Positions 11,408 to 13,145 of a stretch of 22,267 bases of DNA are shown here, piece by piece (position 1 is the stretch's first letter; the number at the start of each line of letters is the position of its first letter). The notes under the pieces are model-generated. The model searched no databases. It had not been told where the DNA came from and saw only the letters and a list, made by a program, of their open reading frames with translations. Made by a program: the position numbers and the translations under genes. Source of the DNA: Promethearchaeota archaeon (GTDB lineage: Archaea > Asgardarchaeota > Lokiarchaeia > Sigyniarchaeales > SOKP01); assembly GCA_048940445.1 (NCBI GenBank), contig JBHLON010000044.1:1-22267 (forward strand), given 5' to 3'.

Positions 11408-12676
11408 TTAACCTATATTAATATGATACTTTCTAAACACTTTTTCAAGTTCTTCGCTTGCTAATTCTCTTAATACATCTCCCAAGGGAGCTAAAACTTC
11501 ATTTTTCGACATTCGACGTTTCTTACTAATTCGGCCTTCTTTTACCTCAAAATTATTTTGAGCCCAGCTATATACATCATTGAATGTAAACCAAACATCT
11601 TTATAAGCGTTTTCTTGACCTCCGTTTCTCGCCAATGGTTTTTTCTCAACTGGAATATCAGGATCTTGCAAGTAACACCAATCTAAAACAACCCATTCGA
11701 GCTTTCTTGAAGATTCTGGACGATCTGCTAAATAAATACAAAAAGAATGCCCTCCTAATTCTGAATCTGATGGAGCAACCATTGGATCGGCTATTACTTG
11801 GGCAGCGCACACTTTCACTCTCCATGATGGAATTCCAGTATTTATCAATAAGCTAGCTATTAAAATTGCACCATCTTCACAATCTCCAATTTCAGATTGA
11901 ATACTTTCAAATGGAAACTGCCAATACTCAGGACATTCAGAACTAATATCATCATATGTATATCTAAGAAATTCACATACAAACTTTTGACATGCCCAAG
12001 CAGTATCATTAGGAGTCTCTCTTCTCAATTGAAGCTTGTAAATAACATGCTGGAGTATTGAATCATTCTTTTTCATAAACGACTTAACGTCGACATCAAT
12101 TTCCTTTTTGTATTGTTCTCCTCTTAAAGCCCGTCCGGTATAAATGATATGTGCCCTCTCCCATTTATTATTCCAATAATTCTGACCATAGCTTCCATAA
12201 TCTTTCTCCTCAAAAGGAATAACCTCTAGAGGTACATCTGGAGTAATAATTTCTGGTTCAGACTCTTCCTTTCCTTTACTTTTACTAGGCAATCCAGAGA
12301 GCGACTTTGCACTACTTATCCAACTTTCCATTTCTTTTTGGGCCGGAAAATTCAGTAAAATATGTGGATTTTCTCTCTTTAACTGTTTAAGCTTTTCTAA
12401 TACATTCTTAACATTTCTCCGGGCAAACTCTTTTACAGAGTCGACCCCAATTAAATTTAGTGCATTTGCCATTTTAGGATCTATACCTTCAATACGCATT
12501 AAATCGGCATGTTCTTGCCATGTATCTAATAATTTTACTGTGATTCCTATTTTTCGGGCTATTTTTCTAATTTGATTCGGGCTTAATGGTATAAGATCTT
12601 CCACGGTCATTAAGCCTTCTTGTTTTAGAAGTTTAGCATGCTTTTCTTCTAATCCTATAATCTCAACTAAATTCAA
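11408..12676 (-). CDS. DUF4332 (HhH-like) domain fused to a transglutaminase-like cysteine protease domain
   Basis: N-terminal IIGL..KHAKLLKQEGL.TVEDL / WQEHADLMRIEGI (DUF4332); C-terminal YWQFP.E..GDCEDGAILIASLL, GGHSF and LDWCY (Cys-His-Asp). TTG start. Confidence 0.8.
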   Translation of the reverse strand: MNLVEIIGLEEKHAKLLKQEGLMTVEDLIPLSPNQIRKIARKIGITVKLLDTWQEHADLMRIEGIDPKMANALNLIGVDSVKEFARRNVKNVLEKLKQLKRENPHILLNFPAQKEMESWISSAKSLSGLPSKSKGKEESEPEIITPDVPLEVIPFEEKDYGSYGQNYWNNKWERAHIIYTGRALRGEQYKKEIDVDVKSFMKKNDSILQHVIYKLQLRRETPNDTAWACQKFVCEFLRYTYDDISSECPEYWQFPFESIQSEIGDCEDGAILIASLLINTGIPSWRVKVCAAQVIADPMVAPSDSELGGHSFCIYLADRPESSRKLEWVVLDWCYLQDPDIPVEKKPLARNGGQENAYKDVWFTFNDVYSWAQNNFEVKEGRISKKRRMSKNEVLAPLGDVLRELASEELEKVFRKYHINIG

Positions 12677-13005
12677 TATAATAACCTTCTTGTATCTATA
12701 TTCTAATAAAAATTAGTAGAATAACATATAATTTTTTCCAAATTTCTCTCTAAAGAACTTTTCAACTTTACATAAATAAAAACATAATTATCAATTAATT
12801 CACTTTTAGACTCCTATTTTAATTATGAAGAAGATTAACTAAAGTTAAGTAGGTTTAATATTTTCTAAATATAAAGATTTAAATTCAAGCTAAAACTTTC
12901 CATTATTACTATAAAAGCTTGTAGAAATTTAATATATCTAATCATTAGATCCGTCTGACTGAATATGTAAATAAAATCATTTAACTACTCGGCGGGATTA
13001 CCGAG

Positions 13006-13035
13006 ATTATACAAGAATGTCTCTTGTATCGGGAG
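13006..13035 (+). other. tRNA intron 1 (30 nt, position about 15/16; junction can slide up to 3 nt left because of a GAG repeat)
   Basis: Hairpin ATACAAGA/TCTTGTAT inserted in ACC-GAG-TCTGG. Only a relaxed BHB-like motif forms (CCG/CGG helix). Confidence 0.72.
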
Positions 13036-13044
13036 TCTGGTCAA

Positions 13045-13078
13045 TGGTCGAGTCTAAAAATGGGTCAAGACCGATTAT
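13045..13078 (+). other. tRNA intron 2 (34 nt, position 21/22)
   Basis: Full bulge-helix-bulge: central helix GGTC (13039-42) / GATT (13073-76), bulges AA|T and AT|A, inner helix GGTC (13046-49) / GACC (13069-72), outer pairs CT/GG. Confidence 0.85.
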
Positions 13079-13139
13079 AGGTGCTGGACTTAAGATCCAG
13101 TGGCAAAGGCCTTCGGGAGTTCGAATCTCCCTCCCGCCA

Positions 13140-13145
13140 TTTTTT
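13140..13145 (+). terminator. Oligo-T terminator after the tRNA
   Basis: T6 immediately after the discriminator base. Confidence 0.55.

Follow-up and report, generated by a model that had tools for sequence, protein, structure and literature searches.

A tRNA-Leu(UAA) gene with two predicted bulge-helix-bulge introns in the D-loop of a Loki-type archaeon

Results

An oversized tRNA-Leu(UAA) gene and its spliced form

The window analysed here is the whole stretch of 22,267 nucleotides, corresponding to contig 108 of an assembly of 3.64 Mb that is 93% complete and has a G+C content of 30%. On its forward strand, positions 12991-13139 hold a tRNA-Leu(UAA) gene of 149 nt, as compared to 85 nt in the spliced form, with a D region that is 64 nt oversized. 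The acceptor stem (12991-12997 paired with 13132-13138) and the anticodon arm (13084-13100, loop CUUAAGA, anticodon at 13091-13093) are intact, as are the long variable arm, the T arm and the discriminator A at 13139; the initial annotation, which had described a D arm 64 nt too long amid otherwise intact arms, proved correct to the base. The CCA end is not encoded. Joining the three exons listed in Table 1 in silico, with 13006-13035 and 13045-13078 removed, yielded an 85-nt sequence that ARAGORN calls as tRNA-Leu(taa) with a normal class II cloverleaf. This product has a 3-bp D stem, G18 G19, a 13-nt D-loop and the T loop UUCGAAU, and it shows all class II tRNA-Leu features, namely UAA in a 7-nt loop, U33, a purine at position 37, a long variable arm and A73. 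Together with the empty sites found in orthologues (see below), the ARAGORN call bears out the proposal that excising these two segments restores a normal leucine D arm. Oligo-T termination is established in archaea, and the run of six T directly behind the discriminator probably serves as terminator.

Table 1. Features of the tRNA-Leu(UAA) locus, in window coordinates.
Feature	Position	Strand	Description
Exon 1	12991-13005	+	acceptor 5' strand, U8 U9, D-stem 5' strand ACC, then G13 A14 G15
Intron 1	13006-13035	+	30 nt, position 15/16; alternative canonical-BHB register 13007-13034, 28 nt
Exon 2	13036-13044	+	9-nt micro-exon: U16 C17 U17a G18 G19 U20 C20a A20b A21
Intron 2	13045-13078	+	34 nt, position 21/22; complete BHB
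Intron 2, outer helix	13037-13038 with 13080-13081		2 bp
Intron 2, central helix	13039-13042 with 13073-13076		4/4 pairs, two of them G-U
Intron 2, bulges	13043-13045 and 13077-13079		3 nt each
Intron 2, inner helix	13046-13049 with 13069-13072		4 bp
Exon 3	13079-13139	+	A22, D-stem 3' strand GGU, G26, anticodon arm, variable arm, T arm, acceptor 3' strand, discriminator A
T run	13140-13145	+	six T, directly 3' of the discriminator; probable transcription terminator

Upstream of the gene, an AT-rich block at about 12870-12909 contains a TATA-like core, TTTAAATT, at 12878, approximately 110 nt before the tRNA. The block is conserved among congeners, and the sequence from the block to the tRNA is not. 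It could drive the tRNA, whose transcript would then have a long leader, or else serve the divergent gene at 11408-12676 as promoter; comparing the regions upstream of 15 tRNA genes (this one and 14 others) revealed no shared promoter motif.

As the initial annotation had anticipated, default tRNA finders miss the gene: ARAGORN called no tRNA in the whole window, and Rfam gave no match in it at the gathering score. At a relaxed threshold, Rfam recovered the 3' part alone (13067-13132), scoring 23.7 bits against a cut-off of 29 bits, with a makeshift D arm lacking G18 G19. Throughout the 3.64 Mb of the assembly, only 18 Rfam matches and 10-20 ARAGORN calls, 10 of them uninterrupted, were obtained. 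Given so few detectable tRNAs, interrupted tRNA genes are normal for this organism and do not signal decay, and most of the genome's tRNA set must be hidden by introns. The tRNA-Leu(UAA) gene is thus a concrete case of default finders under-calling the tRNA sets of Asgard archaea.

Empty sites in relatives define both junctions

A BLAST search of the locus against 40 relatives, combined with a pattern scan, returned 74 parsable orthologous loci that represent 41 distinct sequences of the window's family (f1). Exon 1 ends in the same way in all of them, with CCGAG standing before intron 1 or before its empty site in 41/41, and exon 2 is kept as YNUGGUCAA in every orthologue, which equals the D-loop of uninterrupted Asgard tRNA-Leu(UAA) genes (L134, L135). 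Of the 41 sequences, 14 contain intron 1, which measures 27-33 nt, diverges in its interior and always ends in YCGGRAN. The remaining 27 lack it, and their empty site invariably reads CCGAG followed by YNUGG, that is, the proposed junction. Intron 2 occurs in all 41. When 400 Asgard genomes were scanned with exon anchors, intron 2 was found in all f1 matches and in families f4, f20 and f21, the latter two lying outside the window's class; a relaxed BLAST search also recovered it in f2 and f4, both of them sister families. In many genomes of other Asgard classes the site is uninterrupted, with GGUCAA joined directly to AGGCG or CGGCG, and the D-loop of the uninterrupted tRNA-Leu(UAA) genes measures 13 nt, which is also the length predicted for the spliced product. 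The exact presence or absence of each insertion in relatives thereby fixes both junctions and confirms the two-intron exon model. Moreover, the acceptor and T stems change in a compensatory manner across species, the exons are otherwise invariant and the intron interiors diverge; compensatory stems combined with invariant exons are the signature of a working gene.

In public sequence records, 56 contigs share with the window the end of intron 2 and the anticodon arm to which it is joined. Almost all are labelled Promethearchaeota, Promethearchaeia or other Asgard, a few carry only the label 'uncultured archaeon' and one is labelled as a bacterium. The Promethearchaeota and Promethearchaeia record titles agree with the Asgard-like lineage that had been suggested for this DNA. 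With the 21/22 intron widespread (all of f1 and several other Asgard families) and the 15/16 intron patchy, the orthologues constitute a comparative series that can be used to study intron gain and loss. A search of the genome for related copies of either intron, as expected of a transposing family, gave short chance matches only, the best two of which were not tRNA-like, and we thus found no evidence of intron transposition within this genome at the sequence level.

Some orthologues (L011-L016, L018-L021 and others) are interrupted at additional places, namely the T loop, anticodon loop and variable arm, with up to four introns per gene, and the intron set of tRNA-Leu(UAA) differs even between close species. 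In L133 (genome G133, from another Asgard class), the D-loop is uninterrupted, but an insertion seems to follow the acceptor 5' strand and to precede the D arm.

Intron 2 forms a complete bulge-helix-bulge motif

Candidate bulge-helix-bulge (BHB) motifs were scored for a 4-bp central helix, each strand of which ends two bases before its cut (5' or 3'), with inner and outer helices abutting. At the proposed borders, intron 2 satisfies the full motif (Table 1), in agreement with its earlier description as a complete BHB. The combination of a 4/4 central helix and a 4-bp inner helix arose in only 0.09% of shuffled introns (p about 0.0009), and among the 41 orthologue sequences the central helix has 4/4 pairs in 31 and 3/4 in 10. 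RNAalifold instead paired exon GGUC with the intron's GACC, not its GAUU, and a 3' cut derived from this fold would leave four extra bases in the D-loop. We rejected this reading because empty-site orthologues show the junction GGUCAA/AGG, and because the 5' GGUY of the intron itself is found together with GACC, with which it forms the inner helix.

Intron 2 varies considerably among relatives. Many orthologues (L036, L037, L043, L045, L046, L055, L070, L075, L079, L082 and others) have a form of 62-66 nt, resembling the 34-nt intron with an insertion of approximately 30 nt at its 5' border; the insertion contains UUGAC, complementary to exon GGUCAA. Judged from their sequences, these longer forms may be stacked or nested introns that need stepwise removal. 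At the other extreme, L125 (G190) and L126 (G191) have a minimal intron 2 of 16 nt, composed of one bulge base, a hairpin of 3 bp with a 3-nt loop, a 4-nt central-helix strand and two bulge bases. This is about the smallest possible BHB intron, and it accounts for the conservation of the GGGUCAAGACC block. The intron carries a copy of D-loop bases, GGGUCAA, which we considered as a functional mimic; in L125 and L126, however, these bases are the loop and 3' strand of the inner hairpin and adjoin the central-helix strand, so that ordinary BHB constraints explain most of the motif's conservation. At 13063-13078, the sequence before exon 3 reads GACC GAUU AU in the window's genus and GACU AU in the sister genus g22. 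From this comparison, a difference of 4 nt seems to have made an inner-helix strand of the former central-helix strand, with a new, weaker and G-U-rich central helix in its place.

Intron 1 and its cut register

At 13006-13035, intron 1 has a central helix with 3/4 pairs, a score reached by 9% of shuffles, and no contiguous inner helix, its hairpin being offset by a U-U mismatch. Owing to a GAG repeat, the borders are ambiguous by up to 3 nt in the window sequence. One base inward at each end, at 13007-13034, the motif is canonical: CCGA/UCGG pairs 4/4 in Watson-Crick fashion, with 3-nt bulges, a 4-bp inner helix and one outer pair, a quality that only 0.5% of shuffles matched when any of seven sliding registers was counted. 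The previous description of intron 1 as a relaxed BHB consequently holds for the 13006-13035 borders and fails one base away. Among orthologues, the intron 1 hairpin is maintained via double changes. In the shifted register, 9 of the 14 distinct intron-1 sequences reach a 4/4 central helix, whereas a single one does so at the 13006-13035 borders.

These pairing statistics are what speaks for an alternative in which gene and mechanism are the same but intron 1 is cut as the 28-nt segment, leaving a mature D-loop of 15 nt, with two extra bases, in the species that bear this intron. We regard this alternative as unlikely. The base at position 15, G15, is invariant before the intron, while the base preceding exon 2 may be G, A, U or C, as expected if the former is exon and the latter intron. 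Furthermore, the D-loop has 13 nt in all 27 intron-less alleles as well as in the uninterrupted Asgard tRNA-Leu(UAA) genes. Usual tRNA D-loops have fewer than five bases between position 15 and G18, and the 15-nt loop, with five bases there, would fall outside this range. On these grounds, the 13006-13035 product is favoured over the shifted register by roughly 3 to 1, as far as a cut register can be predicted from sequence. Cutting at 13007-13034 would mean that sister species with and without intron 1 make tRNA-Leu(UAA) D-loops of 15 and 13 nt, respectively; otherwise, the Asgard endonuclease would cut one base off the canonical ruler at a relaxed site. We consider such a departure possible though improbable, and either outcome, if true, would mark out the tRNA or the enzyme as unusual.

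Both motifs can be drawn in one precursor

Folding energies did not provide a useful test of the introns: over the orthologues, the regions of both introns surpassed shuffled sequences by only about 1 SD (z about -1). When the four tRNA arms are imposed as constraints, the most stable fold is a non-BHB structure at -56.7 kcal/mol, compared with -46.3 kcal/mol for the drawing with both BHB motifs, and minimum-free-energy folding of the full-length precursor favours pairings foreign to the tRNA or to the BHB. In intron 1, it is the central helix that engages the D stem, through the 5' strand of the latter; in intron 2, the outer helix engages the 3' strand. Because different strands are engaged, both BHB motifs can be drawn in a single structure, and the sequence imposes no obligatory order. 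The ordered splicing that the initial annotation had raised as a possibility is therefore not required by structure.

Codon demand, copy number and the splicing machinery

UUA makes up 52.7% of the leucine codons in the ORFs of the window, in line with the earlier remark that it is frequent here. Across 864 long ORFs of the genome, it is the commonest leucine codon, with a share of 49.7% among leucine codons and of 4.9% among codons overall. A loose scan for UAA anticodon arms, which allowed an intron and asked for acceptor pairing only, gave 303 matches, nearly all noise, and was dropped. A stricter scan for an anticodon arm plus T arm, and likewise BLAST, found no second tRNA-Leu(UAA) in the 93% complete assembly; no intact UAA anticodon arm with a T arm behind it was found there apart from that of the gene described here.

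The genome encodes two paralogues of the splicing endonuclease EndA, each with N- and C-terminal endonuclease domains. The alpha subunit (201 aa, contig 3) aligns end to end with Aeropyrum pernix alpha (3P1Z chain B; E 3e-38) and contains the catalytic Tyr, His, Lys triad. It keeps the Crenarchaea-specific loop (CSL/L1), with SKPR in place of EKPR, so the equivalent of Lys44 is retained. The second paralogue (205 aa, contig 62) has Ala instead of the catalytic His. As read from these two proteins, the EndA architecture is (alpha-beta)2, which answers the question of subunit type with a catalytic alpha and a beta devoid of the catalytic His. The A. pernix enzyme cuts a D-loop BHB intron in vitro and needs the Crenarchaea-specific loop with Lys44 to do so (PMC3241643); this loop confers broad specificity on EndA (PMC3241643, PMC5829648) and has already been reported in Asgard EndA (PMC5829648). 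The relaxed-specificity enzyme that the two introns had been taken to imply is thus matched, at the level of predicted proteins, by a two-subunit EndA with the broad-specificity loop. The RtcB ligase is encoded as well (560 bits). A loop-bearing EndA, RtcB, a UUA share of about 50% and the absence of a second UAA gene together make it very probable that the gene is functional, strengthening the earlier view that it probably is.

Is the gene decayed or misread?

Two further explanations deserve consideration. The gene could be a decaying pseudogene, in which the insertions stay and the tRNA is supplied from elsewhere; its rejection by standard finders and the imperfect intron 1 motif at the product-restoring borders would fit this idea. 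Such decay is difficult to reconcile with conserved exons and compensatory stem changes over dozens of species, or with a codon of this frequency for which no other UAA gene was found, and with only 18-20 tRNAs detectable genome-wide, interruption is normal in this organism. We therefore consider a pseudogene very improbable. It is scarcely credible that the arrangement is an assembly artefact, since an independent genome (L002) has the same arrangement of 149 nt, with a sequence identity of 93%. The same verdict applies to a parse with one large intron and the short D arm of the Rfam model at 13070-13082. Here, the alignment to 13067-13132 does offer a pseudo D arm, in which ACCG and AGGU enclose a 7-nt loop. 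This pseudo D-loop is devoid of G18 G19, however, whereas the two-intron parse gives the archaeal leucine D-loop of uninterrupted genes and exactly fits the presence and absence of the insertions in relatives.

Discussion

We conclude, with a probability of about 0.88, that the locus is a functional and probably single-copy tRNA-Leu(UAA) gene with two predicted BHB introns in the D-loop that would be removed by an (alpha-beta)2 EndA and joined by RtcB, with cleavage, the intron 1 register and ligation inferred. In the pathway that we propose, a precursor of approximately 149 nt plus leader would be transcribed, and each intron would fold with its exon flanks into a BHB. The two-subunit EndA with its Crenarchaea-specific (L1) loop would then presumably cut in both bulges, RtcB would ligate the exons and CCA would be added afterwards, resulting in an 85-nt class II tRNA with the usual 13-nt D-loop. 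The tRNA for the organism's most used leucine codon would accordingly depend wholly on splicing by proteins at two non-canonical sites with only 9 nt between them, and the gene is well suited as a natural substrate with which to probe how broad a range an Asgard splicing endonuclease has.

Multi-intron, non-canonical tRNA genes are described for Thermoproteales and other Crenarchaeota (Sugahara et al., 2008; Marck and Grosjean, 2003). The resemblance extends to several BHB introns per gene, sites outside 37/38 and the need for an (alpha-beta)2 EndA of broad specificity; the host here belongs to a different phylum, and related intron copies were not found elsewhere in its genome. A closer mechanistic parallel is the pre-tRNA-Thr2(UGU) of A. 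pernix, which likewise has a D-loop BHB intron and an (alpha-beta)2 EndA, whose loop and Lys44 are conserved in the alpha subunit described here (Hirata et al., 2011; PMC3241643). That precursor has one D-loop intron, with cleavage tested in vitro, whereas the present gene has two predicted ones, separated by a 9-nt exon.

The nearest precedents come from the Asgard archaea themselves. A study of 2024 described heavily interrupted tRNA genes in Asgard archaea (PMC11291895), and D-arm insertions, located at BHB boundaries, have been identified as the class most missed by tRNAscan-SE (bioRxiv 10.64898/2026.10.13.758758). The present gene shares with these two reports the multiple non-canonical introns per gene, the missed D-arm insertions, the BHB-type boundaries and the two-paralogue EndA, which they find in most genomes. 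The reports are centred on Jordiarchaeia and Atabeyarchaeia, whereas the host here is a Loki-type genus, and the main text of the preprint (bioRxiv 10.64898/2026.10.13.758758) makes no mention of Lokiarchaeia or Promethearchaeia. Compared to both, our analysis contributes the 21/22 intron of tRNA-Leu(UAA), which occurs in every f1 match and in several other families, two of them outside the class. The design of the gene is nonetheless already described for Asgard archaea, of which the tRNA-Leu(UAA) gene is a well-supported but ordinary example, and the current picture, of which heavily interrupted Asgard tRNA genes are already part, is left unchanged.
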